IMG/VR virus record: IMGVR_UViG_2684622669_000002
Location: 1-10,992 of that record
DNA length: 10,992 bases
Reading direction: 5' to 3' (one strand)
DNA from: a virus
Taxonomy: Duplodnaviria; Heunggongvirae; Uroviricota; Caudoviricetes
Shown here in pieces: positions 1 through 10,992 of this stretch. The notes beneath the pieces were generated by a model. The model saw only the letters and a program-made list of their open reading frames with translations. It did not search any database and was not told where the DNA came from. A program made the position numbers and the translations under genes. Each line of letters starts with the position of its first letter. Position 1 is the stretch's first letter.

Positions 1-12
1 CCGCAGATGGTT
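1..12. promoter_or_regulatory. Partial OL3-like cI operator, truncated by the window edge
   Basis: Window starts 'ccgcagatggtt', which matches the right-hand part of the lambda-type 17-bp operator TATCACCGCAGATGGTT as I recall it. Position left of the cI operon is as expected for OL. Confidence 0.45.
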
Positions 13-155
13 ATCTGTATGTTTTTTATATGAATTTATTTTTTGCAGGGGTGCATTGTTTGGTAGGTGAGAGATCTGAATTGCTATGTTTAGTGAGTTG
101 TATCTATTAATTTTCAAATAAATACAATTGGTTATGTGTTTTTTTGGGGGGGTTA

Positions 156-186
156 GGCAAAGAAAACCCGGCACTGAGGCCGGGTT
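156..186 (-). terminator. Rho-independent terminator ending the cI-cassette operon (tImm-like)
   Basis: On the minus strand, an 8-bp perfect stem (AACCCGGC / GCCGGGTT, + coords 165-172 and 179-186) with a 6-nt loop is followed by TTTTCTTTG. It begins 6 nt after the stop of the 192..563 ORF. Confidence 0.7.
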
Positions 187-191
187 GTGTG

Positions 192-563
192 TTACTTAAG
201 AACGAGTCCGTTTAAGGCATCAAGGATTTTGGAAACATAACTTCCAAAAATGTAGGCGCAAAATGCGAACACGAAACTGACAACGACCGCAGATGCCTTA
301 ATGGTGGTTTTTGCTGAGCTAATGCTTGTCTCAATACCTGACAGACGAGAATCAACAGATTTTATATCTGACTTTACCTCAGCGAGATCGCGCTTGATGT
401 ATTCAACATCAGACTCTAGCTTTGCAACTCTAGCCTCAAGCATGTTACCTCCGCCGTTTCCTCCACCATGCCGTGAGTATGCATCATCAGTGGAATAGTG
501 TCCAATTGGGCGAGATATGTTTTGATTTGGACGAAGCTGAGCAACCTTGTTATCTAAACTCAT
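192..563 (-). CDS. Hypothetical 123-aa tail-anchored coiled-coil membrane protein; distal gene of the rexAB-slot cassette, candidate membrane effector
   Basis: ORF with ATG at 563-561 and an AGGA about 10 nt upstream. Translation shows a polar N-terminus, a Gly-rich linker (GGGNGGGN), a heptad-like segment (LEARVAKLESDVEYIKRDLAEVKSDIKSVDSRL) and one C-terminal hydrophobic helix (AVVVSFVFAFCAYIFGSYV). No family recognised. Confidence 0.6.
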   Translation of the reverse strand: MSLDNKVAQLRPNQNISRPIGHYSTDDAYSRHGGGNGGGNMLEARVAKLESDVEYIKRDLAEVKSDIKSVDSRLSGIETSISSAKTTIKASAVVVSFVFAFCAYIFGSYVSKILDALNGLVLK

Positions 564-987
564 CGCGAACTGATCCTGTTATCTTCACGTCAAAAAACGA
601 ACTTTTTACATCAATTACTTCGCCTTTCTCAGGATTAACCAGTGATGCTCTAACTTCGAATATCCCAGGCTTGATAATTTTCACCCTTGGGAAGTTAATT
701 CTCATAGAAGTTGATACGATGGTTTCTCCATCGTTGGCTTCTGCTACCGTAAAAAACTTATGGTTGGAGTACAGTTTTGTGTCAATTGGTATCGGTATTT
801 CTTGAGCATTGAAAACCTCAATGCCTATGGAATATTTTTTTGTAGCCTTAAGGCAGATAAAAAAAGCGCCAAATGACAGATCCACTTCATGGGAGTCTTT
901 ATCCATTTCATAGATAAGAACTGGAGTTACGTGGTTGCCTTCATCCATCGCAATTGGAATGATATAAGAAATACGTTCTTTAATCAT
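550..987 (-). CDS. Hypothetical 145-aa protein; proximal gene of the rexAB-slot cassette
   Basis: ORF begins 7 nt after the cI stop codon and overlaps the next ORF by 14 nt. No hydrophobic helix and no catalytic motif I recognise. Alternating hydrophobic pattern suggests a beta-rich fold. Confidence 0.6.
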   Translation of the reverse strand: MIKERISYIIPIAMDEGNHVTPVLIYEMDKDSHEVDLSFGAFFICLKATKKYSIGIEVFNAQEIPIPIDTKLYSNHKFFTVAEANDGETIVSTSMRINFPRVKIIKPGIFEVRASLVNPEKGEVIDVKSSFFDVKITGSVRDEFR

Positions 988-994
988 TTACGTG

Positions 995-1711
<717 letters not shown>

Positions 1712-1718
1712 TTAAATC

Positions 1719-1784
1719 TATCACCGCAAGGGATAAACTTCTAACACCGTGCGTGTTGACTATTTTACCTCTAGCGGTGATAAT
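1719..1784. promoter_or_regulatory. OR3-OR2-OR1 operator cluster with divergent PRM/PR promoters
   Basis: OR3 tatcaccgcaagggata (1719-1735), OR2 taacaccgtgcgtgttg (1742-1758), OR1 tacctctagcggtgata (1766-1782). PR -35 ttgact (1756-1761) and -10 gataat (1779-1784) with 17-nt spacing. cro RBS aggagg at 1799-1804. Confidence 0.85.
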
Positions 1785-1808
1785 GATTGCCTGTACTAAG
1801 GAGGTTGT

Positions 1809-2009
1809 ATGGAACAACGCATAACCCTGAAAGATTATGCAATACGCTTTGGCCAAACCAAGACGGCTAAAGATCTCGGCGTATATCAAAGCGCGATTAA
1901 CAAGGCCATTCATGCAGGCCGAAAGATTTTTTTAACTATAAACGCTGATGGAAGCGTTTATGCGGAAGAAATAAAGCCCTTCCCAAGTAACAAAAAAACA
2001 ACTGCATAA
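1809..2009 (+). CDS. cro: Cro repressor
   Basis: 66-aa translation [64 protein letters not shown] matches lambda Cro apart from a couple of conservative substitutions. Strong RBS; sits immediately right of OR1/PR. Confidence 0.95.
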
Positions 2010-2016
2010 GTAACAC

Positions 2017-2062
2017 CGCTCTTTTCACAATGGACATTCGTCCTACGTCGCTGACAAAGCGA
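2017..2062 (+). promoter_or_regulatory. nutR-like N-utilisation site: boxA plus boxB hairpin
   Basis: boxA-like cgctctttt at 2017-2025, just after the cro stop. Perfect 5-bp stem with pentaloop at 2048-2062 (TCGCT-GACAA-AGCGA). The loop differs from lambda boxB (GAAAA) and resembles the P22-type loop as I recall it. Confidence 0.5.
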
Positions 2063-2146
2063 GCCCCAAGATATCTGACCAACTAAGGCCATATGCGTTT
2101 CAACGCATACCTTTCAACTAACTATTCACTATTGGAAAATTAACAA

Positions 2147-2446
2147 ATGACACAAGCAAGTTACAGCAAGCCAACACAGCGAGAAATTGATCGCGCAGAA
2201 ACAGATTTACTCATCAACCTGTCAACGCTTACCCAGCGCGGTCTGGCAAAGATGATTGGCTGTCATGAATCGAAGATAAGCAGAACGGACTGGAGATTTA
2301 TTGCTTCGGTCTTGTGTGCTTTTGGAATGGCATCAGACATCAGTCCGATTAGCAGGGCTTTTAAGTATGCGCTTGATGGACTCACCAATAAAAAACGCCC
2401 GGTGTGCAAGACCGAGCGTTCTGAACAAATACAAATGGAATTTTAA
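2147..2446 (+). CDS. cII: CII-like transcriptional activator
   Basis: 99-aa protein with a central HTH-like segment (QRGLAKMIGCHESKISR). C-terminus (LTNKKRP…TERSEQIQMEF) is almost identical to the lambda CII C-terminal region; N-terminal half differs. Position after cro/nutR fits. Confidence 0.8.
   Translation: MTQASYSKPTQREIDRAETDLLINLSTLTQRGLAKMIGCHESKISRTDWRFIASVLCAFGMASDISPISRAFKYALDGLTNKKRPVCKTERSEQIQMEF
2388..2418 (-). terminator. oop-like antisense terminator inside the 3' end of the cII-like gene
   Basis: On the minus strand, a 7-bp stem with one G-U pair (CGCUCGG…CCGGGCG), 9-nt loop, then UUUUUU. Same location and orientation as the lambda oop RNA terminator within cII. Confidence 0.45.
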
Positions 2447-2468
2447 TAACATCCAACGAGGTAATTAT

Positions 2469-2741
2469 ATGCGAAACAAAGGCTTTAATCCACCTGATAC
2501 ACACAAAGAAGCTAAGCGTTTGCGCTTCCTTCGTTCCATTGATGAAAGAACTCAAATCTCTTTTGTGAAAGTTGCCAGAACTGAGCTTCTGAAGGCTGAG
2601 GCGAGGGAGTTGCTCCCATCTCTACCAAAAGAGGAGGAATATACGTTCATTCCAAACGCATTTCTGGAAAAGCTGCTCAAAGAAGACATATCCGTAAGTC
2701 AGTTTAACGATGTTCTTAAGGTCTTTCGTCAAGGCAGGTAG
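2469..2741 (+). CDS. Hypothetical 90-aa protein between cII and the initiator gene
   Basis: ATG at 2469 is preceded by GAGG at 2458-2461 with 7-nt spacing. The track ORF 2301..2741 is the same frame extended upstream into cII and is unlikely to be the true start. Charged, probably helical protein; no family recognised. Confidence 0.5.
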   Translation: MRNKGFNPPDTHKEAKRLRFLRSIDERTQISFVKVARTELLKAEARELLPSLPKEEEYTFIPNAFLEKLLKEDISVSQFNDVLKVFRQGR

Positions 2742-2743
2742 TT

Positions 2744-3691
2744 ATGAGCAATACAGCAAAAATCTACGATTTCAGCGCCGCACACGAGCGCAGGAGCAAC
2801 AGGATGGAGAACCAGAAAACTGGTTACATTCCGTTGTACCGGAGCATTCTGAAACAGTCATGGGCGAAAGATGTTTATCTTCGCACCCTGTGGGAAAACC
2901 TTCTCCTGAATGCCGCCAGAAAGCCATACAAAGCGAATTTCAAAGGTCATGAATGGCATCTGCAACCCGGTCAACTGGTTGTGACAGCAGCTGATTTAGG
3001 TCTTCAGTTATGCGACAGGCATGGCAAGCCAGCAAGCCGCGATCAGGTTGAGCGGATGCTTCAGGTTTTTGTGAAAGAGGGGATGATCTCCATTGATGGA
3101 GAGAAGAAAAAAGGTCGTGTGATCACCATCACAAATTACCATGAATACGCTCAAAAAATGGACAATTTACCCGCACATGAAGCCGCACAAACAACCGCAC
3201 ATGATGCCGCACATGACGAAGCCAGTAACGGCGCGGCTTTCGGGGTACATGCCGCACATGAAAGCGCACATGAAGCCGCACAAACAACCGCACATCATGA
3301 ACAAGAAGGTATTAACAAGAATATAAATAATACCCCCCTACCCCCCAATGGGGGAGGCGATGGGCAGGTTAAACCTGAACGTCGCAAGGCAGAACGAATC
3401 GACTACGAATCCTTCCTGAACGCCTACAACACCGAAGTCGGTGACAGACTGCCACACGCTGTTGCGGTCAACGAGAAACGCAAACGCCGCCTGAAGAAAA
3501 TCATCCCGCAACTGAAAACGCCAAACGTGGACGGTTTCAGAGCGTATGTCAGGGCGTTTGTACATCAGGCCAAGCCGTTTTACTTCGGAGACAACGATAC
3601 TGGCTGGACGGCCGATTTTGATTACCTGCTGAGAGAAGATTCGTTAACGGGAGTTCGTGAAGGGAAGTTTGCAGACAGGGGGATTGCATGA
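2744..3691 (+). CDS. Replication initiator, O-like (N-terminal iteron-binding domain, repetitive linker, C-terminal domain)
   Basis: N-terminus [10 protein letters not shown]… resembles lambda O (MTNTAKILNF…). Iteron repeats lie inside the coding sequence, as in lambdoid O genes. Followed by a helicase gene with ATGA start/stop overlap. Confidence 0.85.
3169..3300. repeat. Origin iterons: about 8 copies of a CCGCACA(T/A)GA-type unit in two clusters, followed by an AT-rich segment
   Basis: Direct repeats visible at about 3170, 3182, 3195, 3206, 3250, 3263, 3275 and 3288. Followed by AT-rich 3301-3332 and a CCCCC-AAT-GGGGG hairpin at 3342-3354. Layout matches a lambdoid ori within the O gene. 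Confidence 0.7.
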
Positions 3692-5064
3692 AACAGGATA
3701 TCGAAGCGAGCGTTATCGGTGGCCTGCTGATTGGTGGATTAACACCAACTGCCAGTGACGTTCTGGCAACGCTGGAGCCGGAAGCGTTTTCAATTCCGCT
3801 CTACCGGAAAGCCTTCGAGGTTATCCGGAAGCAGGCGAGAAACAGAAACCTAATCGACGCGCTGATGGTTGCCGAGGCGTGCGGAGAGGAGCATTTCACG
3901 TCAATCCTGATGACCAGCAAAAACTGCCCGAGTGCCGCAAACCTGAAGGGATATGCCGGAATGGTCGCGGATAACTATCACCGCCGTCTGGTGCTGGAAA
4001 TCATGGATGAAATGCGTGAACCAATTCAGAGCGGAACCATCGACGCATCGAGTCAGGCGATGGACGAGCTTGTAAAGCGTCTTTCAGCCATCAGAAAGCC
4101 CCGTGACGAGGTTAAACCTGTACGGTTAGGGGAAATCATCACTGACTACACTGACACGCTTGACAGGCGTCTGAGGAACGGAGAAGAGTCAGATACCCTG
4201 AAGACCGGAATCGAAGAACTTGACGCCATCACCGGAGGGATGAACGCGGAAGACCTGGTGATTATCGCCGCTCGTCCTGGTATGGGGAAAACCGAACTGG
4301 CGCTGAAGATTGCCGAAGGCGTTGCAAGTCGTGTTATTCCTGGTTCTGACGTCCGGCGCGGGGTATTGATTTTCTCAATGGAAATGAGCGCATTGCAGAT
4401 TGCAGAGCGAAGCATTGCCAACGCCGGGAGGATGTCGGTTAGCGTACTGCGAAATCCTGCATCGATGGATGACGAGGGCTGGGCACGTGTTGCTAACGGC
4501 ATGAGTCAGCTTGCAGATTTGGATGTATGGGTAGTCGATGCTTCTCGGTTATCGGTCGAAGAAATACGCTCAATCGCAGAACGGCATAAGCAGGAAAATC
4601 CAAACCTGTCACTCATCATGGCGGATTATCTTGGCCTGATTGAGAAGCCGAAAGCAGACCGCAACGACCTCGCAATTGCTCACATCTCCGGAAGCCTGAA
4701 GGCGATGGCGAAAGACCTGAAAACGCCAGTTATCTCCCTGAGTCAGCTTTCGCGCGATGTTGAGAAGCGACCAAACAAACGCCCGACAAACGCAGATTTG
4801 CGTGATTCAGGAAGCATTGAGCAGGACGCAGACTCAATCATCATGCTCTATCGGGAAGCGGTATATGACGAGAACGGTAGCGCCGCGCCATTTGCTGAAA
4901 TCATCGTGACGAAAAACCGTTTTGGCTCGCTTGGTACGGTTTACCAGCGGTTCTGTAACGGACACTTTGTTGCATGTGACCAGGATGAAGCAAGACAGAT
5001 TTGCACAGCATCAAATGCACCTGCTGCGCGTGGCAGACGATATGCACAAGGGGCTGACGTATGA
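3688..5064 (+). CDS. DnaB-family replicative helicase (phage-encoded, P22 gp12-like)
   Basis: 458 aa. Walker A ARPGMGKT, DnaB-like motifs ([17 protein letters not shown]), N-terminal DnaB-type domain. Start overlaps the stop of the O-like gene. Confidence 0.9.
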
Positions 5065-5136
5065 CCATCTACATAACTGAGCTAATAACAGGCCTGCTGG
5101 TAATCGCAGGCCTTTTTATTTGGGGGAGAGGGAAGT

Positions 5137-5463
5137 GTGGCTGACTGGCAAATTCCAATCATCATTCTTGCCGGAGCTTCGCTGGTTGCTGGCTTTATCC
5201 TGCTGAAAAAGCATAAAGACCGTGATCAAAAAGTCGAAGTTCTATATGGGTATCCAGCGAACTGCACAACATGGCTGACCATTTACCACTACCGAAAATC
5301 AGGCCGCTGGGTATTCGAATGGGATGATCTGTTCGCTGAAAAGCGACCAAAGTCATGGGGAGACATCAGCGAATGCATGATGTTTGAAGAAAGAAAATCC
5401 GGCGCAACTCGAGAAGAGTTTAACGAAGCGTGGAGGCGATTAAGTGAGAGAGGGTATCAATGA
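5137..5463 (+). CDS. Hypothetical 108-aa protein with an N-terminal transmembrane helix (ren-position gene)
   Basis: GTG start at 5137 preceded by GGGGGAGAGGG. N-terminal hydrophobic helix IPIIILAGASLVAGFILL. Stop overlaps the start of the next ORF (ATGA). Confidence 0.45.
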   Translation: MADWQIPIIILAGASLVAGFILLKKHKDRDQKVEVLYGYPANCTTWLTIYHYRKSGRWVFEWDDLFAEKRPKSWGDISECMMFEERKSGATREEFNEAWRRLSERGYQ

Positions 5464-5696
5464 GCAGAATTAAATCTGGTTATCCAGGGAATGGGGAATA
5501 CCCGAAGCCATATTTACCTGTAACAGTGACCACTCAATCTAAGCATCCACATCATTTCAAGCATAGTGGTACAGCTTATTGGAGTGGAAAGCGGTGGATA
5601 GGTATTGATGGGTTCAAAATTGGGTATGCAAAGGTAATTAAATGGGAATTTAACATCGCACACTGGAGTTCATCCCATGAGGAAACTAACGTTTGA
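5460..5696 (+). CDS. Hypothetical 78-aa protein
   Basis: ORF translationally coupled to the preceding ORF (ATGA overlap); its 3' end overlaps the ninB start by 20 nt. No family recognised. Confidence 0.45.
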   Translation: MSRIKSGYPGNGEYPKPYLPVTVTTQSKHPHHFKHSGTAYWSGKRWIGIDGFKIGYAKVIKWEFNIAHWSSSHEETNV

Positions 5697-6117
5697 ACTA
5701 AGAAGCCCCATCCATCAGCAGAACGCCATTCAAGCCATCCAGCAAATCCTTCCAGACCCAACCAAACCAATCGTAGTAACCATTCAGGAGCGCAACCGCA
5801 GCTTAGACCAGAATCGAAAGCTTTGGGCTTGCCTTGGTGACGTCTCGCGTCAGGTTGAATGGCATGGTCGATGGCTGGATGCAGAAAGCTGGAAGTGTGT
5901 GTTTACCGCAGCATTAAAGCAGCAGGACGTTGTTCCTAACCTTGCCGGGAATGGCTTTGTGGTAATAGGCCAGTCAACCAGCAGGATGCGTGTAAGCGAA
6001 TTTGCGGAGCTATTAGAGCTTATACAGGCATTCGGTACAGAGCGTGGCGTTAAGTGGTCAGACGAAGCGAGACTGGCTCTGGAGTGGAAAGCGAGATGGG
6101 GAGATCGGGCTGCATGA
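5677..6117 (+). CDS. ninB: NinB recombination protein (Orf-family, ssDNA-binding)
   Basis: 146-aa translation is near-identical to lambda NinB as I recall it (…LTFE.RSP.HQQNAI…LPDPTKPIVVTIQERNRSLDQNRKLWACLGDVSRQVEWHGRWLDAESWKCVFTAALKQQDVVPNLAGNGFVVIGQSTSRMRV…). Confidence 0.9.
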   Translation: MRKLTFELRSPIHQQNAIQAIQQILPDPTKPIVVTIQERNRSLDQNRKLWACLGDVSRQVEWHGRWLDAESWKCVFTAALKQQDVVPNLAGNGFVVIGQSTSRMRVSEFAELLELIQAFGTERGVKWSDEARLALEWKARWGDRAA

Positions 6118-6641
6118 CTATCAAATCAAATACGCCAGCACACGACAAGGACTGCTGGCAAACGCCGCTCTGGCTTTTTGATGCGCTGGATATTGAGTTT
6201 GGGTTCTGGTTGGATTCGGCAGCGAGCGACAAAAATGCTCTGTGCGCTCACTGGTTAACTGAGGCCGACGACGCGCTAAATTCTGAGTGGGTAAGCCACG
6301 GTGCAATCTGGAATAACCCACCGTACAGCAATATCAGGCCGTGGGTGGAAAAAGCCGCTGAGCAGTGCATACAACAGCGACAGACGGTAGTTATGCTTGT
6401 GCCAGAGGATATGTCAGTCGGATGGTTCAGCAAGGCTCTGGAGAGTGTCGACGAAGTTCGCATTATCACTGATGGACGGATTAATTTTATCGAACCATCG
6501 ACGGGGCTGGAGAAGAAGGGAAACAGCAAAGGCTCCATGCTGCTGATTTGGCGACCGTTCATCAGTCCTCGACGGATGTTTACTACCGTATCCAAAGCGG
6601 CATTGATGGCGATCGGGCAGGGCGTCAGGAGGGCTGCATGA
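6114..6641 (+). CDS. Phage DNA N6-adenine methyltransferase (phage Dam family)
   Basis: Start ATG at 6114 overlaps the ninB stop. NPPY catalytic motif ([10 protein letters not shown]). Size and position are typical of nin-region phage Dam proteins. The track ORF from 6054 is an upstream in-frame extension. Confidence 0.85.
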
Positions 6642-6814
6642 GACGACAGCGACGAAGCATCACCGACATCATCTGTGAAAACTGCAAATACCTTCCAACG
6701 AAACGCTCCAGAAATAAACGCAAGCCAATCCCAAAAGAATCTGACGTAAAAACCTTCAACTACACGGCTCACCTGTGGGATATCCGGTGGCTAAGACATC
6801 GTGCGAGGAAATGA
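6638..6814 (+). CDS. ninE: NinE
   Basis: 58-aa product [55 protein letters not shown] matches lambda NinE as recalled. Start overlaps the Dam stop (ATGA). Confidence 0.8.
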
Positions 6815-6816
6815 CA

Positions 6817-7176
6817 ATGGATTATTCACAGTTAAGTGATTTTGAAATTAACGTGGCGGTATTCGAAGCCATTCATAACGGATCACCGGATTACAAAGAA
6901 GGTGAGAATGGCGATATGGTGTTTGTCTCATTTGAGGGAGACATTGTAAACGGAGACGCAGTTGAAGTAGAAGTTGAGCGCGGATCCTTTAACCCATGCG
7001 CAAACCCAGCAGACGCATGGCCGATTATTGAAAAATACAGGATTAGCATTATCAATCTCGATGAAGACGAGTGGGGTGCACGCGGTGTGGCCTACTGTAA
7101 ATCTAAGCGAGCTATACATGAAAATCCCCTCCGCGCCGCCATGATTGTCTTTCTCATGATGCAGAGAATCCAATAA
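6817..7176 (+). CDS. Hypothetical acidic nin-region protein (about 120 aa)
   Basis: ATG at 6817 preceded by GAGG at 6805-6808; ATG 6811 is an alternative start. Acidic N-terminal half. Ends TAATG, overlapping the ninF start. Confidence 0.55.
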   Translation: MDYSQLSDFEINVAVFEAIHNGSPDYKEGENGDMVFVSFEGDIVNGDAVEVEVERGSFNPCANPADAWPIIEKYRISIINLDEDEWGARGVAYCKSKRAIHENPLRAAMIVFLMMQRIQ

Positions 7177-7352
7177 TGCTTAGCCCATCCCAATCCCTTC
7201 AATACCAGAAAGAAAGCGTCGAGCGAGCTTTAACGTGCGCTAACTGCGGTCAGAAGCTGCATGTGCTGGAAGTTCACGTGTGTGAGCACTGCTGCGCAGA
7301 ACTGATGAGCGATCCGAATAGCTCAATGTACGAGGAAGAAGACGATGAATGA
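7176..7352 (+). CDS. ninF: NinF
   Basis: Not in the supplied ORF track (below size cutoff). Hand translation gives MLSPSQSLQYQKESVERALTCANCGQKLHVLEVHVCEHCCAELMSDPNSSMYEEEDDE, which matches lambda NinF as recalled, with Cys-rich motifs. Confidence 0.7.
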   Translation: MLSPSQSLQYQKESVERALTCANCGQKLHVLEVHVCEHCCAELMSDPNSSMYEEEDDE

Positions 7353-8070
7353 GTTAATAAATGGCAATGCCATCAAAATGACAAGCATTGAAATCGCTGA
7401 GTTGGTAGAAAGCCGCCATAGCAATGTAAAAGTATCCATAGATAGATTGGTGAAACGTGGCGTTATCAAGCCTCCTGCATTGCAGCACACTAACATAATC
7501 AATGATTTAGGTGTTATTACCGGGAAGCGTGATTTCTACGTCTTCGAGGGCGAACAAGGTAAGCGAGACAGCATTATTGTCGTCGCTCAGTTGTCGCCGG
7601 AATTCACCGCTCGTCTTGTTGACCGTTGGCGAGAGCTTGAAGAAGCTGCAGTTAATATCCCCAAAACGTTACCGGAAGCGTTGCGCCTTGCTGCTGATCT
7701 TGCTGAGCAGAAAATGCAACTGGAAAACCAGCTCGCAATTGCCGCACCTAAAGTTGAGTTTGCCGATCGAGTTGGCGAGGCCAGCGGAATTTTGATTGGA
7801 AACTATGCAAAGGTTGTTGGTATTGGTCCAAACAAACTGTTTGCATGGATGCGCGATCACAAAATCCTTATTGCTTCAGGTTCCCGGCGCAATGTGCCAA
7901 TGCAGGAATATATGGATCGCGGCTATTTCACAGTGAAAGAAACAGCGGTCAACACAAATCACGGAATACAGATATCGTTTACCACAAAAATCACCGGGCG
8001 CGGTCAACAGTGGCTGACCAGAAAGTTGCTCGATAACGGAATGCTGAAAGTAACAGGGGAGGCTGCTTAA
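7345..8070 (+). CDS. Phage antirepressor, KilAC (ANT) domain protein
   Basis: 241 aa. C-terminal segment (NYAKVVGIGPNKLFAWMRDHKILIASGSRRNVPMQEYMDRGYF) has the ANT/KilA-C pattern. N-terminal domain is of the AntA/Rha-like type. RBS GAGGAAG upstream. Confidence 0.8.
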   Translation: MNELINGNAIKMTSIEIAELVESRHSNVKVSIDRLVKRGVIKPPALQHTNIINDLGVITGKRDFYVFEGEQGKRDSIIVVAQLSPEFTARLVDRWRELEEAAVNIPKTLPEALRLAADLAEQKMQLENQLAIAAPKVEFADRVGEASGILIGNYAKVVGIGPNKLFAWMRDHKILIASGSRRNVPMQEYMDRGYFTVKETAVNTNHGIQISFTTKITGRGQQWLTRKLLDNGMLKVTGEAA

Positions 8071-8360
8071 TGGCTAACCTACGCAAAGAAGCACGCGGCA
8101 GAGAATGCCAGGTACGTATTTACGGCGTATGCAATGGCAATCCTGAAACTACAGTTCTGGCACATTACCGGATGGCTGGAATTTGCGGAACGGGAATGAA
8201 GCCTGACGACCTGATCGGTGCATGGGCTTGTAGTGCGTGTCACGATGAAATCGACCGACGCACCCATAATCTCGACAACAAAGACGCCAGACTTTACCAC
8301 CTCGAAGGCGTGATCAGAACGCAGGCGATACTGCTGAAGGAGGGGAAGATTAAGCCATGA
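8070..8360 (+). CDS. ybcO: YbcO-like protein (DUF1364, Cys/His-rich putative nuclease)
   Basis: 96-aa protein with CxxxxxC … CxxC-H motif. Resembles DLP12 prophage YbcO as recalled. Sits before rusA as in DLP12-type nin regions. Confidence 0.7.
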   Translation: MANLRKEARGRECQVRIYGVCNGNPETTVLAHYRMAGICGTGMKPDDLIGAWACSACHDEIDRRTHNLDNKDARLYHLEGVIRTQAILLKEGKIKP

Positions 8361-8881
8361 ACGGTAAAAGATATCCAACACAAAAAGAAATCAATGAATT
8401 GTATGAATATAATAGCGAAACAGGTTTGTTTATATACAAGAGAAGAGAAAGTGTAAGAGAGTGCTGGAATTCAACATATGCCGGTAAGATTGCTGGTTCT
8501 ATAGATGAAAAAGGATACGTTCGTATATCTGTAAATAAAAAAGTTTGTCGAGCTCATAGAATCGCATGGATATCCTTTTATGGAAGTGAACCTGATGGGG
8601 AAATTGACCACATAAATGGAATTAAAAGCGATAACAGAATATGCAATTTGCGCGTTGTAGATGATAAACAGAACTCAAGGAACAGAAAAAAGCCTATTAA
8701 TAATCGCTCTGGAGTAATTGGTGTTGCCTACTATAAGAAGAATAAAAAGTGGGGCGCATATATAAACAGTGATAATAAAAAGATATTTCTTGGATTATAC
8801 GATGACATATCTCTAGCCGTTAATGCCAGAAAATTGGCGGAATCACGATTGGGCTATCACCATAATCATGGGAGAGGATAA
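8357..8881 (+). CDS. HNH endonuclease with AP2-type DNA-binding domain (homing-endonuclease-like)
   Basis: HNH_3-type motif (EIDHINGIKSDNRICNLRVV) followed by an AP2-like segment (SGVIGVAYYKKNKKWGAYI). Codon usage is visibly AT-rich compared with flanking genes. Confidence 0.8.
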   Translation: MNGKRYPTQKEINELYEYNSETGLFIYKRRESVRECWNSTYAGKIAGSIDEKGYVRISVNKKVCRAHRIAWISFYGSEPDGEIDHINGIKSDNRICNLRVVDDKQNSRNRKKPINNRSGVIGVAYYKKNKKWGAYINSDNKKIFLGLYDDISLAVNARKLAESRLGYHHNHGRG

Positions 8882-9244
8882 ATGGCAGAATACAGATTCA
8901 CACTTCCGTACCCACCGTCGCTGAACACCTACTGGCGAAGACGGGGAAGCCAATACTACATCAGCGATAAAGGCCAGAAATACCGAAAAGACGTTCAGCA
9001 AATCATCCGCCAACTTAAGTTAGACATTTTCACCAAATCACGACTCCGCATCAAAGTCATCGCAGACGTTCCAGACTCCCGCCGCCGCGACCTCGACAAC
9101 ATCCTGAAAGGTTTACTCGACTCCCTTATCCACGCCGGATTTGCGGAAGACGACGAGCAATTCGATGACATTCGCGTAATTCGTGGCGTGAAAGTACCAG
9201 GCGGAAGGCTTGGAATAAAAATCACCGAACTGGAGAACGCATGA
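8882..9244 (+). CDS. rusA: RusA Holliday junction resolvase
   Basis: 120 aa with the conserved RusA pattern (…DVPDSRRRDLDNILKGLLDSL…GGRLGIKITE…), comparable to E. coli RusA. Confidence 0.9.
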   Translation: MAEYRFTLPYPPSLNTYWRRRGSQYYISDKGQKYRKDVQQIIRQLKLDIFTKSRLRIKVIADVPDSRRRDLDNILKGLLDSLIHAGFAEDDEQFDDIRVIRGVKVPGGRLGIKITELENA

Positions 9245-9429
9245 ACGCCACAATTCAAACGATACCAGAGCTTCTTATCCAGACACGAGGCAATCAGACC
9301 GAAGTGGCGAGGATGCTTTCCTGCGCAAGAGGAACAGTGCTCAAGTACAACCGAGACAGCAAAGGCGAGCGTCATGTAATAGTTAACGGCGTCCTGATGG
9401 TCAAACAGGGCAAGAGGGGAAGACGATGA
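9241..9429 (+). CDS. ninH: NinH-like small DNA-binding protein
   Basis: 62 aa. IPELLIQTRGNQTEVARMLSCARGTVLKY matches lambda NinH (IPDMLVEAYGNQTEVARRLKCSRGTVRKY as recalled). Confidence 0.75.
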   Translation: MNATIQTIPELLIQTRGNQTEVARMLSCARGTVLKYNRDSKGERHVIVNGVLMVKQGKRGRR

Positions 9430-9914
9430 GCATAAGAGAACTAAACCTCACCAAAGAACAGCACGATTGGCTGAATGGCTGGCTTGAACTGTGGGGCGCA
9501 TGGGTTTATTCAGGCCGCCTGGAAAAGCGCATGAGCAGCGTAATAGCGAAGTTCATGGAGAGCGTAGAGCCGGGAAGAGTTATGACAAGGCCAATGTGTA
9601 ATGATGATGATGGAATGTTGATTTCTCAGGTCGTCGATTCCGTCATGTACATTGACAAGAAAGCCTTTGGCATCCTCCTCAGCTACTACGCTCATGGATC
9701 TTCCAAGCATGCCATTGCATCTTACTATCATCGTGTCGCAAGACCTCGCAAGATGTTATGCCGGGGCGGCGGGCGCATTCAAAAACCATCGCTCGCAACC
9801 TGTCGACGGGAAGTTGACGAAATCCTTAATGCCTCGTTGTTTATGATTTACCCGGTTCTTGATAGTGCGTTTAAAAACCGGAAACGTGTAGAGAAAATTA
9901 AACATGTAGCATAG
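9426..9914 (+). CDS. Late-gene antiterminator Q-like protein (probably phage-21-type)
   Basis: Last gene of the nin operon, immediately upstream of a TTGACA promoter element and the lysis genes, and adjacent to a phage-21-type S/R cassette. Call rests on position and size; sequence not independently matched. Confidence 0.6.
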   Translation: MSIRELNLTKEQHDWLNGWLELWGAWVYSGRLEKRMSSVIAKFMESVEPGRVMTRPMCNDDDGMLISQVVDSVMYIDKKAFGILLSYYAHGSSKHAIASYYHRVARPRKMLCRGGGRIQKPSLATCRREVDEILNASLFMIYPVLDSAFKNRKRVEKIKHVA

Positions 9915-9920
9915 AACGTG

Positions 9921-9952
9921 TTGACATCATTGAGCAAATGAGCAACACTATT
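9921..9952 (+). promoter_or_regulatory. Candidate late promoter PR'
   Basis: Consensus -35 TTGACA at 9921-9926, 7 nt after the Q stop. A-T-rich candidate -10 (cactat/actatt) 19-20 nt downstream, so spacing is not ideal. Called mainly on position. Confidence 0.35.
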
Positions 9953-9963
9953 GGCATAAGCTG

Positions 9964-10004
9964 CCGTTAGTGACTCTTAAGTTGCAACGGTGGATTTTTT
10001 TATT
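9964..10004 (+). terminator. Terminator-like stem-loop plus T-tract shortly downstream of the candidate PR'
   Basis: CCGTT (9964-9968) pairs with AACGG (9986-9990) and can extend inward with a bulge; TTTTTTTATTT follows at 9995-10005. Could be a short-leader tR' or a pause/processing structure. Confidence 0.35.
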
Positions 10005-10005
10005 T

Positions 10006-10080
10006 GGGTCAGTCGTATAAAGGTCATTACGGAAGGCTGTTAACCTTCTTATCGTGGTTCGAGTCCACGCTGTCCCGCCA
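10006..10080 (+). tRNA. tRNA-like gene, anticodon GTT (Asn), CCA encoded
   Basis: Hand-folded cloverleaf. Acceptor gggtcag/ctgtccc with one T-T mismatch. Anticodon stem gaagg/ccttc with loop ctGTTaa. T-arm cgtgg-ttcgagt-ccacg. 3' gCCA. D-stem is only 3 bp. Confidence 0.5.
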
Positions 10081-10085
10081 AACAT

Positions 10086-10161
10086 GCTGGTTTAGCTCCA
10101 ATGGTAGAGCAGTCGCCTTGTAAGCGAATGGGTAGCGGTTCAAGTCCGTTAACCAGAACCA
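10086..10161 (+). tRNA. tRNA-like gene, anticodon TGT (Thr), CCA encoded
   Basis: Hand-folded cloverleaf. D-arm gctc-caatggta-gagc. Anticodon loop ctTGTaa. T-arm agcgg-ttcaagt-ccgtt. Acceptor gctggtt/aaccaga with a mismatch at the first pair. 3' aCCA. Confidence 0.55.
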
Positions 10162-10168
10162 TAACTGA

Positions 10169-10229
10169 GCCGTAGCCACTGGCTATCCTGAATTCATCAG
10201 TGATAGTTACGCTGCGGCCTTCTTTTTTC
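10169..10229 (+). terminator. Structured region with T-tract downstream of the tRNAs (candidate tR')
   Basis: Imperfect long hairpin (gccgtagc … gctgcggc with internal ctatc/gatag pairing) followed by ccttcttttttcc. Lies about 300 nt downstream of the candidate PR' and before the holin RBS. Confidence 0.35.
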
Positions 10230-10279
10230 CCCTTCCCAATATAAGAACTACGCAATCCGTTACTGGCGGAGGCGTTGCT

Positions 10280-10495
10280 ATGAAATCAATGGACAAAATC
10301 TCAACTGGCATTGCCTACGGAACATCTGCTGGTAGTGCGGGATACTGGTTTTTGCAGTGGTTGGATCAGGTCAGTCCGTCACAGTGGGCTGCGATTGGAG
10401 TGCTTGGAAGCCTTGTCTTGGGTTTTCTCACTTATCTGACAAATCTTTATTTCAAGATTAAAGAAGATAAGCGTAAGGCTGCGAGAGGTGAATAA
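10280..10495 (+). CDS. S: Phage-21-type pinholin S (dual-start MKSM motif)
   Basis: 71-aa translation [60 protein letters not shown]…KAARGE matches S21 as recalled. Two TM segments. GGAGG RBS 8 nt upstream. Confidence 0.95.
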
Positions 10496-10992
10496 TGTCG
10501 CCGTCATTACGCAAGGCTGTTGCAGCTGCTATTGGTGGTGGGGCTGTTGCCATAGCGTCTGTGCTCATCACTGGTCCAGGTGGTAACGATGGTCTGGAAG
10601 GTGTCAGCTACATACCATACAAAGATATCGTTGGCGTATGGACTGTATGTCACGGGCACACCGGAAAAGACATTATGCCCGGTAAAACGTATACCGAAGC
10701 AGAATGCAAAGCCCTCCTGAATAAAGACCTTGCCACGGTCGCCAGACAAATTAACCCGTACATCAAAGTCGATATACCGGAAACAACGCGCGGCGCTCTT
10801 TACTCGTTCGTTTACAACGTGGGCGCTGGTAATTTCAGAACATCGACGCTTCTTCGCAAAATAAACCAGGGTGATATCAAAGGCGCATGTGACCAGCTAC
10901 GTCGCTGGACATACGCTGGCGGTAAGCAATGGAAAGGGCTGATGACCCGTCGTGAGATTGAGCGTGAAGTCTGTTTGTGGGGGCAACAATGA
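10495..10992 (+). CDS. R: SAR endolysin R (phage-21-type lysozyme with N-terminal signal-anchor-release domain)
   Basis: 165 aa. N-terminal Gly/Ala-rich weakly hydrophobic SAR segment ([23 protein letters not shown]), then a T4-lysozyme-like catalytic domain. Start overlaps the holin stop (TAATG). Confidence 0.95.

Follow-up and report, generated by a model that had tools for sequence, protein, structure and literature searches.

A free-standing HNN-AP2 endonuclease gene inserted at the start of rusA in Escherichia coli lambdoid prophages, with probable spread by homing

The window studied here, a 10,992-nucleotide (nt) stretch of Caudoviricetes DNA (IMG/VR record IMGVR_UViG_2684622669_000002, positions 1 to 10,992), is the early-right region of a lambdoid prophage. 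Between ybcO and the Holliday-junction resolvase gene rusA it carries an open reading frame (ORF) of 174 residues, here called the endonuclease ORF, which we consider probably to be a free-standing homing endonuclease gene. Its ATG (8357-8359) overlaps the ybcO stop codon TGA (8358-8360) as ATGA, and its TAA (8879-8881) abuts the rusA ATG at 8882. With a GC content of 0.349, the ORF is the lowest of all 525-base-pair (bp) stretches in the window, the non-overlapping stretches having a mean of 0.476, a standard deviation of 0.037 and a minimum of 0.379; the GC content at third codon positions is 0.286 in the ORF, 0.526 in ybcO and 0.570 in rusA. The composition of the ORF is foreign. A preliminary description of this DNA, made from its letters, had named the neighbours as a ybcO-like gene and rusA, with the ORF more AT-rich than either and overlapping or abutting both; the family matches of the neighbours (Table 1), the windowed GC calculation and the codon positions bear this out.

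Compared with empty sites, the window contains an insertion of exactly 525 bp (8363-8887, the boundary being ambiguous by 1 nt, a G) that leaves ybcO and rusA both intact: the 1501-bp query spans 976 bp in HK97, HK022, HK620, mEpX1 and others. Marking the edges of the insertion with a slash, the empty junction of HK97 reads ...GATTAAGCC ATGAAC / GAATATCAGTTTGTGCTTCCATACCCG..., with rusA beginning at that ATG, and the filled junction of the window reads ...GATTAAGCC ATGAAC / GGTAAA...GGGAGAGGATAA ATGGCA / GAATACAGATTCACACTTCCGTACCCA...; at the captured start, the alignment with the HK97 empty site is ...AAGCCATGAAC / GAATATCAG.... Therefore, the original start codon of rusA, together with the overlap that it forms with the ybcO stop, now serves the endonuclease ORF, while rusA is initiated from a start that the insertion supplies (Table 1). 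The left junction is identical in all filled loci. The sole change to RusA is at its N-terminus, from MNEYQFVLPYPP to MAEYRFTLPYPP, and in the 10 of 10 filled loci read, ybcO encodes 96 amino acids (aa) and rusA 120 aa. The preliminary description had placed a selfish insertion between ybcO and rusA. The insertion is indeed present and precise, but its point lies two codons inside rusA, whose start codon it has captured.

No terminal inverted repeats or target-site duplication were found at 8363 and 8887, and neither a promoter nor a terminator on the + strand was found within the insertion. An Rfam scan gave no intron or other family in the insertion, two tRNAs being the sole matches, and rusA reads through without splicing. 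Since terminal repeats, + strand promoters or terminators and introns are all missing, the insertion is a promoter-less cassette on the nin transcript. An origin as a transposon or insertion sequence was rejected on the first of these grounds, and an intron or ribozyme origin on the Rfam result. We also rejected a component of anti-phage defence: PADLOC returned no defence-system match, the endonuclease matching weakly a generic 'HEase, homing endonuclease' model (E=1.8e-5), and the neighbours of the ORF are ordinary nin-region genes. An imperfect direct repeat of 20 nt, 80% identical (8329-8348, TACTGCTGAAGGAGGGGAAG; 8930-8949, TACTGGCGAAGACGGGGAAG), brackets the insertion site. It was not made by the insertion, because empty sites such as that of HK97 have it too, with copies 76 nt apart there, and it is probably due to chance.

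The protein is predicted to combine two domains. Its N-terminal half matches Pfam HNH_3 (PF13392) at aa 65-108 with E=1e-16 (60.7 bits against a cutoff of 24.8), and the ORF matches PHROG_99 'HNH endonuclease' with E=7e-63; NCBIfam has no named family for it. In the AlphaFold model (predicted local distance difference test, pLDDT, 94.9), the nuclease core comprises strands 82-85 and 98-101 and helix 103-108, all with pLDDT >90, in the beta-beta-alpha-metal fold. A family profile of 77 sequences matches the intron endonuclease I-HmuI (1u3e) with its N-terminal half (E=4e-7), the DH...N...N residues being aligned. D84, H85, N97 and N106 of the endonuclease thus correspond to D74, H75, N87 and N96 of I-HmuI, are invariant or nearly so among the 77 homologues, and constitute the predicted active site. 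In I-HmuI, these residues act as general base and metal ligands. The endonuclease has no Cys dyads, which assigns it to the 'HNN' subtype, as described for phage HNN-AP2 genes (PMC2248197).

The second domain is less evident from the single sequence, for which the Pfam AP2 match (PF00847) is sub-threshold (E=0.038, 14.7 bits against a cutoff of 33.3) and covers only aa 118-142. However, precomputed PF00847 calls are present in many homologues, and the consensus of the 77 homologues shows the AP2 signature SGxxGVxWxxxxxKWxAxIxxxxKxxxLGxF. The family profile also matches solved plant AP2/ERF domains, namely WRI1 (7wq5, E=7.6e-10), TEM1 (7et4, E=9e-6) and ERF1 (1gcc, E=6e-3). In the model, strands 123-126, 131-138 and 141-148 are followed by helix 151-165, and this part superposes on AtERF1 1gcc with a root-mean-square deviation (rmsd) of 1.2 A over 48 columns and a template-modelling (TM) score of 0.65 of the target, and on TEM1 7et5 with 2.7 A over 55 columns; 7et4 was also superposed. 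Foldseek with the model ranks I-HmuI first and AP2 domains next. Owing to the homologue calls, the family profile and the model fold, the AP2 domain is real despite its sub-threshold Pfam score. Both domains named in the preliminary description, the HNH motif and the AP2-type segment, are therefore upheld, and the ORF is best assigned, from sequence and model, to the HNN-AP2 class, with a predicted N-terminal I-HmuI-like nuclease followed by a C-terminal AP2-type DNA-binding domain.

The site is defined by related phages that lack the gene (HK97, HK022, HK620) together with about 920 E. coli genomes, the comparison that the preliminary description had proposed. Far from being carried universally by related phages, the gene occurs in 0 of the 260 phage records matching the flanks and in 33 of 5,426 complete E. 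coli genomes (megablast), with one copy each, always beside ybcO (DUF1364). All 33 copies are at least 98.9% identical, and their flanks mostly 95-99%. The ybcO-rusA junction itself is present in about 920 of the 5,426 genomes, and roughly 3-4% of these sites are filled, about 97% of equivalent junctions being empty. Among 50,697 phage records, the ORF has no DNA relative beyond a chance-sized match of 50 nt, so no donor phage can be named. No close relative was found among 185,579 species represented by one genome each, the best match being 41% identical, in a metagenome-assembled genome of Kiritimatiellae; the relatives found outside E. coli are at most 48% identical to the endonuclease.

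Index entries for the identical protein point to 974 blocks of a large assembly collection, and in 10 of 10 collection loci read the order is ybcO-HNH-rusA-ninH. Around this constant core the 10 loci vary in repressors, lysis cassettes, Q (two families), holins (three types) and terminases (two types, Terminase_3 and Terminase_6N), and their replication modules include lambda O/P, DnaB-type, primase-helicase and IstB-like forms. At least four different genes stand upstream of ybcO among the filled loci. In NZ_CP147050.1 (L002 3248-4438), an IS1A insertion has truncated the endonuclease copy at its 5' end and has deleted ybcO together with the nin genes before it; the 92 codons that remain are annotated by RefSeq as 'HNH endonuclease'. 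The copy with a differing 5' end (H74) was considered as a second insertion context and rejected, as it represents the same site truncated by IS1.

Filled and empty sites drawn from viral contigs were compared base by base, with positions counted from the insertion point. Fixed differences occur only at +6, 7, 8, 9, 12, 13, 14 and 21, with +15 and +27 nearly fixed, and beyond +27 all polymorphism is common to filled and empty sites. On the ybcO side there are zero fixed differences across the last 300 nt of ybcO, and filled sites hold several ybcO haplotypes also known at empty sites, including both alleles at -8. The linked change is a recoded patch of 27 nt at the 5' end of rusA (Table 1). 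Compared with HK97, 10 of the 27 nt of the patch differ, and 19 of 623 nt in the rest of ybcO and rusA (Fisher p=3e-8). The patch and the endonuclease gene co-occur in all complete viral loci (17/17), metagenome loci (5/5) and genome loci (10/10); one further viral locus with the patch is cut at the contig end, and the patch without the gene was not found in the viral contigs, metagenomes or genome loci. The corresponding 27 nt are almost invariant in 42 empty sites. From the position of the patch we infer that this conserved rusA segment is, or overlaps, the predicted recognition site, and that the patch may be an altered, immune version of the homing site and/or a donor flank that was co-converted.

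Diversity was evaluated with 31 full-length copies, the truncated copy described above being left out. Nucleotide diversity in the filled loci is 0.007 for the insert, 0.038 for ybcO and 0.028 for rusA, a 4-5-fold lower diversity in the insert than in the flanks, although the insert value is biased downward by 10 of the 31 loci, for which an exact match to the protein was the criterion of retrieval. The low value agrees with the copies in viral contigs, which show 2-5 differences per 525 nt, and with the unbiased megablast search. There are 26-27 distinct alleles each of ybcO and rusA among the filled loci, and the diversity of the flanks is equal in filled and empty loci, with a small but significant fixation index (Fst) of about 0.056 (p<0.01). 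Because the flanks are more diverse than the insert, whereas a single vertical insertion predicts otherwise, the cassette has moved into many pre-existing backgrounds, with exchange endpoints 0-27 nt from its edges. All 31 copies are intact, and the segregating changes (16 synonymous, 6 non-synonymous) give a ratio of non-synonymous to synonymous polymorphism (pN/pS) of about 0.09. These data indicate that the free-standing gene has been recently mobile and is under selection; judged from its sequence, it appears functional and not decaying. The HNH motif, for which degeneracy had been considered in the preliminary description, keeps D84, H85, N97 and N106.

We consider it probable that the endonuclease ORF is a free-standing homing endonuclease gene which spreads by homing into ybcO-rusA junctions. 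The gene is present or absent at one homologous site with both neighbours intact in either state, lies outside any intron or intein, and has no transposon ends; in the population data, the carrier differs at the putative target and the linkage ends at the 27-nt patch. In the mechanism that we propose, lytic growth or induction would bring about synthesis of the endonuclease from the early-right (nin) transcript. If the cell also harbours a related phage or prophage whose ybcO-rusA junction is uninterrupted, the AP2 domain would bind the conserved rusA 5' end (ATGAAC GAATATCAGTTTGTGCTTCCATA...) there, and the HNH domain would nick or cut close to it. The cut genome would then be repaired by recombination with the carrier genome, receiving the cassette along with the adjoining recoded rusA stretch of about 27 nt. 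The carrier itself is proposed to be spared because the insert splits the site and the patch carries 8-10 substitutions. The earlier proposal of a selfish-element insertion of the free-standing homing type is thus supported by the precise insertion, the linked patch, and the many flank haplotypes and backgrounds.

Several observations weigh against this account. A patch-like rusA 5' end (ATGAATGAGTACAGATTCACG...) occurs without the endonuclease gene in five loci from viral contigs (L013 and L078-L081), where rusA directly adjoins roi and both ybcO and an HNH gene are missing. This end has 7 of the 8 fixed changes of the patch and is related, not identical, to it; consequently, the patch may go back to an older natural allele of rusA that was the first host of the element, and may not have evolved for immunity. 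The roi-rusA end could be the ancestral patch allele or a naturally resistant one. The Fst is significantly above zero, which makes it likely that founder events were limited in number. The loci are non-independent, and the 10 loci chosen by exact protein identity lower the apparent diversity of the insert. In addition, I-HmuI also cuts intron-containing DNA, and carrier immunity is therefore not assured in this enzyme family (PMC3428280). Finally, co-infecting lambdoid phages could also exchange a 525-bp cassette between backgrounds by ordinary homologous recombination.

Such passive recombination is the main rival, although we judge it unlikely. In this case the gene would be an accessory gene ('moron') of a single low-GC acquisition, shuffled by homologous recombination in the ybcO and rusA flanks and not by its own nuclease, and its protein would serve the phage otherwise, for instance by attacking competing phages or processing DNA. 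Mosaicism is indeed pronounced in lambdoid phages, and many modules vary among the filled loci; flanks that are 95-99% identical between phages offer ample homology, the flank differentiation given above fits a few founder haplotypes, and an intron endonuclease has been shown to act in the competition of co-infecting phages (PMC11620839). However, passive crossovers over flanks of about 290 and 360 nt should leave longer hitch-hiking blocks than are seen, the linkage to the insert ending within 0 nt on the left and 27 nt on the right. A recoded patch exactly at the element edge, a design that recurs at a second junction, is something that a site-specific nuclease needs but passive cargo could do without. 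The nuclease, with its intact predicted active site, is under strong purifying selection. The gene is dispensable, as its absence from most equivalent junctions attests. Nuclease-initiated gene conversion is the best account of the spread.

It is considerably less probable that the gene is an inactive relic, a former homing endonuclease gene kept by linkage only. In its favour, HNN-AP2 genes are usually proposed to degenerate once they have invaded (PMC2248197), IS1 has truncated one copy, and the Pfam AP2 score lies below threshold; but every full-length copy is intact under a low pN/pS, the four predicted active-site residues are conserved, the two-domain model is confident, and the very low nucleotide diversity indicates recent spread. 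A role in packaging, in which the HNH protein would assist terminase in cos cleavage as in HK97-type phages, is suggested by the presence of an HNH nuclease in a lambdoid, HK97-like context. HK97 gp74 is reportedly an HNH nuclease that aids terminase in cos cleavage. The present gene, however, belongs to the early nin region, where it precedes the lysis genes by more than 2 kb and is not next to terminase; it is found with two unrelated terminase types, is missing from HK97 itself as well as from most related junctions, and encodes an AP2 sequence-specific DNA-binding domain. The packaging role is effectively refuted by the gene position and distribution.

The element is a clear example of the known HNN-AP2 class and has recently spread at one spot, the start of rusA. 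HNN-AP2 genes are known as dispersed, free-standing phage endonuclease genes (PMC2248197; PMC10448857); they correspond to the HNH-AP2 family of Magnani et al. 2004, as represented in these two citing papers. Named relatives are those of the Xanthomonas phages Xp10, OP1 and Xop411 (PMC2248197) and the 'IPA-HNH' genes of ICP1 (PMC10448857). The window gene shares with this class an N-terminal HNN-type His-Me finger without Cys dyads, followed by a C-terminal AP2 domain, and the sequence boxes AHR..W, WP/P, IDH, DNR, NLR and xN (boxes according to PMC2248197). It also shares a length of about 160-180 aa, a free-standing position at gene junctions, low GC content and sporadic occurrence. For the Xanthomonas genes, no conserved flank was found and a sequence-independent transfer was proposed (PMC2248197), whereas the window gene has a single exact site, a population of empty sites and a linked recoded patch.

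The closest solved relative of the nuclease domain is I-HmuI of phage SPO1 (PDB 1U3E), with which the D-H...N...N pattern is shared, and which is grouped with I-HmuII, I-BasI and I-PfoP3I. Enzymes of the I-HmuI type are nickases that cut within a few nucleotides of the insertion site, I-HmuI itself cutting 3 nt from the intron insertion site (PMC3428280), and nicking so close by fits a putative target beside the insert. The two differ, however, in that I-HmuI resides in a group I intron of a DNA polymerase gene while the window endonuclease is free-standing, without an intron; the C-terminal DNA-binding part of I-HmuI is not AP2, and accordingly the whole-chain TM score is 0.42 and the profile match is limited to the nuclease core. 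An I-HmuI orthologue or intron-encoded nickase was rejected on these grounds (no intron; AP2 at the C-terminus). The AP2 domain has the same fold as those of plant AP2/ERF proteins (AtERF1 1GCC, TEM1 7ET4/7ET5, WRI1 7WQ5), a three-stranded sheet on a helix, with the core motifs G-V, KW-A-I, LG-F/Y and A--A in common. Unlike these, it is attached to a nuclease, and since the DNA-facing residues of its sheet differ from those of plant ERFs, the bound sequence cannot be transferred from them.

The free-standing endonuclease genes of phage T4 are typically promoter-less cassettes on host transcripts that move with co-conversion of their flanks (PMC2988022). The window gene resembles the T4 seg and mob genes ('intronless homing', PMC2988022; MobE, PMC2790892) in being promoter-less, placed between conserved genes and sporadic, and the population data liken it to their mode of mobility, i.e. 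break repair with co-conversion of flanking markers (PMC2988022). However, the cleavage sites of the free-standing T4 enzymes are usually hundreds to thousands of bp away from the gene of the enzyme itself (PMC2988022), whereas the sole linked sequence change of the window element lies within 27 nt of the insert. Mob proteins carry an HNH domain with a zinc-finger-type C-terminus (PMC10448857) in place of AP2, and the host of the present gene is a temperate lambdoid prophage, unlike T4.

On its own, the element is an ordinary selfish gene, and its worth lies in an unusually clean natural experiment: one exact site, about a thousand empty and dozens of filled sites in public genomes, and a candidate target of 27 nt, with the well-studied HK97, HK022 and HK620 as partners in which the site is empty. 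Targets are known for few HNN-AP2 enzymes, and this gene offers a directly testable candidate target and a putative immune variant in E. coli. The case would show how homing endonucleases contribute to the mosaicism of temperate phages, most knowledge having come from lytic T4-like phages.

A second site was seen in a related prophage locus (L064), in which the ninB-dam junction holds a paralogue (L064 3226-3753; dam at 3750-4280) that is 32% identical to the window endonuclease. The first 26 nt of this paralogue are those of dam (MTIKSNTPA) and match window 6114-6139 exactly, and the 5' end of dam is recoded there, MIKHKSETPKEVR replacing the window-type segment and identity resuming at DCWQTP. 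From this alignment, the ninB-dam junction of the window (6114-6150) is the empty site for a second, paralogous HNN-AP2 gene. Related prophages also hold other low-GC HNH_3 or HNH_3+AP2 genes, 32-43% identical to the window endonuclease, and the further homing-type genes (Table 1) lie at other junctions, namely the ninF side, cII-O, after Q, and O-primase; one primase gene shows a LAGLIDADG_3 (intein-like) match. This suggests that E. coli lambdoid prophages hold a whole population of homing-type elements.

Start capture together with a recoded 5' end was thus observed at two independent junctions, rusA in the window and dam in L064. We tentatively propose, as an idea that falls somewhat short of even odds, that the HNN-AP2 genes of E. 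coli lambdoid prophages form a guild with a shared design. Each would lie a few codons inside a nin-region gene, having captured its start with the translational coupling to the gene upstream, and would carry at its 3' edge a recoded 5' end that restores the gene and destroys the recognition site. If this is true, cleavage by these enzymes would be expected no more than about 30 bp from the insertion point, as with intron-encoded enzymes but not with the free-standing ones of T4, and upon induction they could attack sibling prophages in the same chromosome. The recurrence of the design at two junctions merits a systematic survey.

Table 1. Features of the window, with the further homing-type genes of related prophages in the last line (positions there are those of the named loci).
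Feature	Positions	Strand	Evidence or remarks
CI-like repressor	995-1708	-	
ninB	5677-6117		
Dam-like methylase	from 6114		
roi/ant	7345-8070		
ybcO (DUF1364)	8070-8360	+	upstream neighbour, intact; Pfam YbcO PF07102, E=1.8e-44
Captured start ATGAAC	8357-8362	+	original rusA initiation codon and codon 2; still overlaps ybcO stop (ATGA), now initiates endonuclease ORF
Endonuclease ORF	8357-8881	+	174 aa, ATG start, TAA stop; free-standing HNN-AP2 homing endonuclease (probable)
525-bp insertion	8363-8887	+	endonuclease codons 3-174, TAA stop, Shine-Dalgarno-like sequence, new rusA start
HNH_3 (His-Me finger) catalytic core	8549-8680	+	aa 65-108; beta-beta-alpha element aa 82-108 (predicted)
AP2/ERF-type DNA-binding domain	8708-8851	+	aa 118-165; three antiparallel strands and helix
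Shine-Dalgarno-like GGGAGAGGA	8870-8878	+	supplied to rusA by insertion
New rusA start ATGGCA	8882-8887	+	supplied by insertion
rusA (Holliday-junction resolvase)	8882-9244	+	downstream neighbour and presumed target gene, intact; Pfam RusA PF05866, E=2.4e-16; PHROG_34, E=7.5e-53
Recoded patch, rusA 5' end	8888-8914 (27 nt)	+	GAATACAGATTCACACTTCCGTACCCA, against GAATATCAGTTTGTGCTTCCATAYCCR in empty sites
Q antiterminator	9426-9914		
tRNA-Asn(GTT)	10006-10080		between Q antiterminator and holin genes
tRNA-Thr(TGT)	10086-10161		between Q antiterminator and holin genes
Further low-GC free-standing HNH_3, HNH_3+AP2 or NUMOD4+HNH_3 genes	L063 4949-5455; L064 98-526; L067 7783-8295 and 1746-4652; L070 7965-8456; L072 913-1380		

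In the rest of the window, cro and cII and then replication genes precede ninB, ninX and ninF sit between the Dam-like methylase gene and roi/ant, ninH lies between rusA and Q, and holin and lysozyme genes follow the two tRNAs on their 3' side. The tRNA-Asn(GTT)/tRNA-Thr(TGT) pair is also annotated in the related prophage of NZ_CP147050.1. As to annotation, the ybcO (DUF1364) product is labelled 'HNH endonuclease' in RefSeq phage records (HK97 NC_002167.1, L001 1671-1961) and in PHROG_131, and Pfam names it 'putative nuclease YbcO', while RefSeq labels the endonuclease gene merely as 'HNH endonuclease signature motif containing protein'. Two adjacent genes are thus both HNH-labelled, which invites a mix-up of ybcO with the endonuclease ORF; the mobile insert is the endonuclease ORF only.

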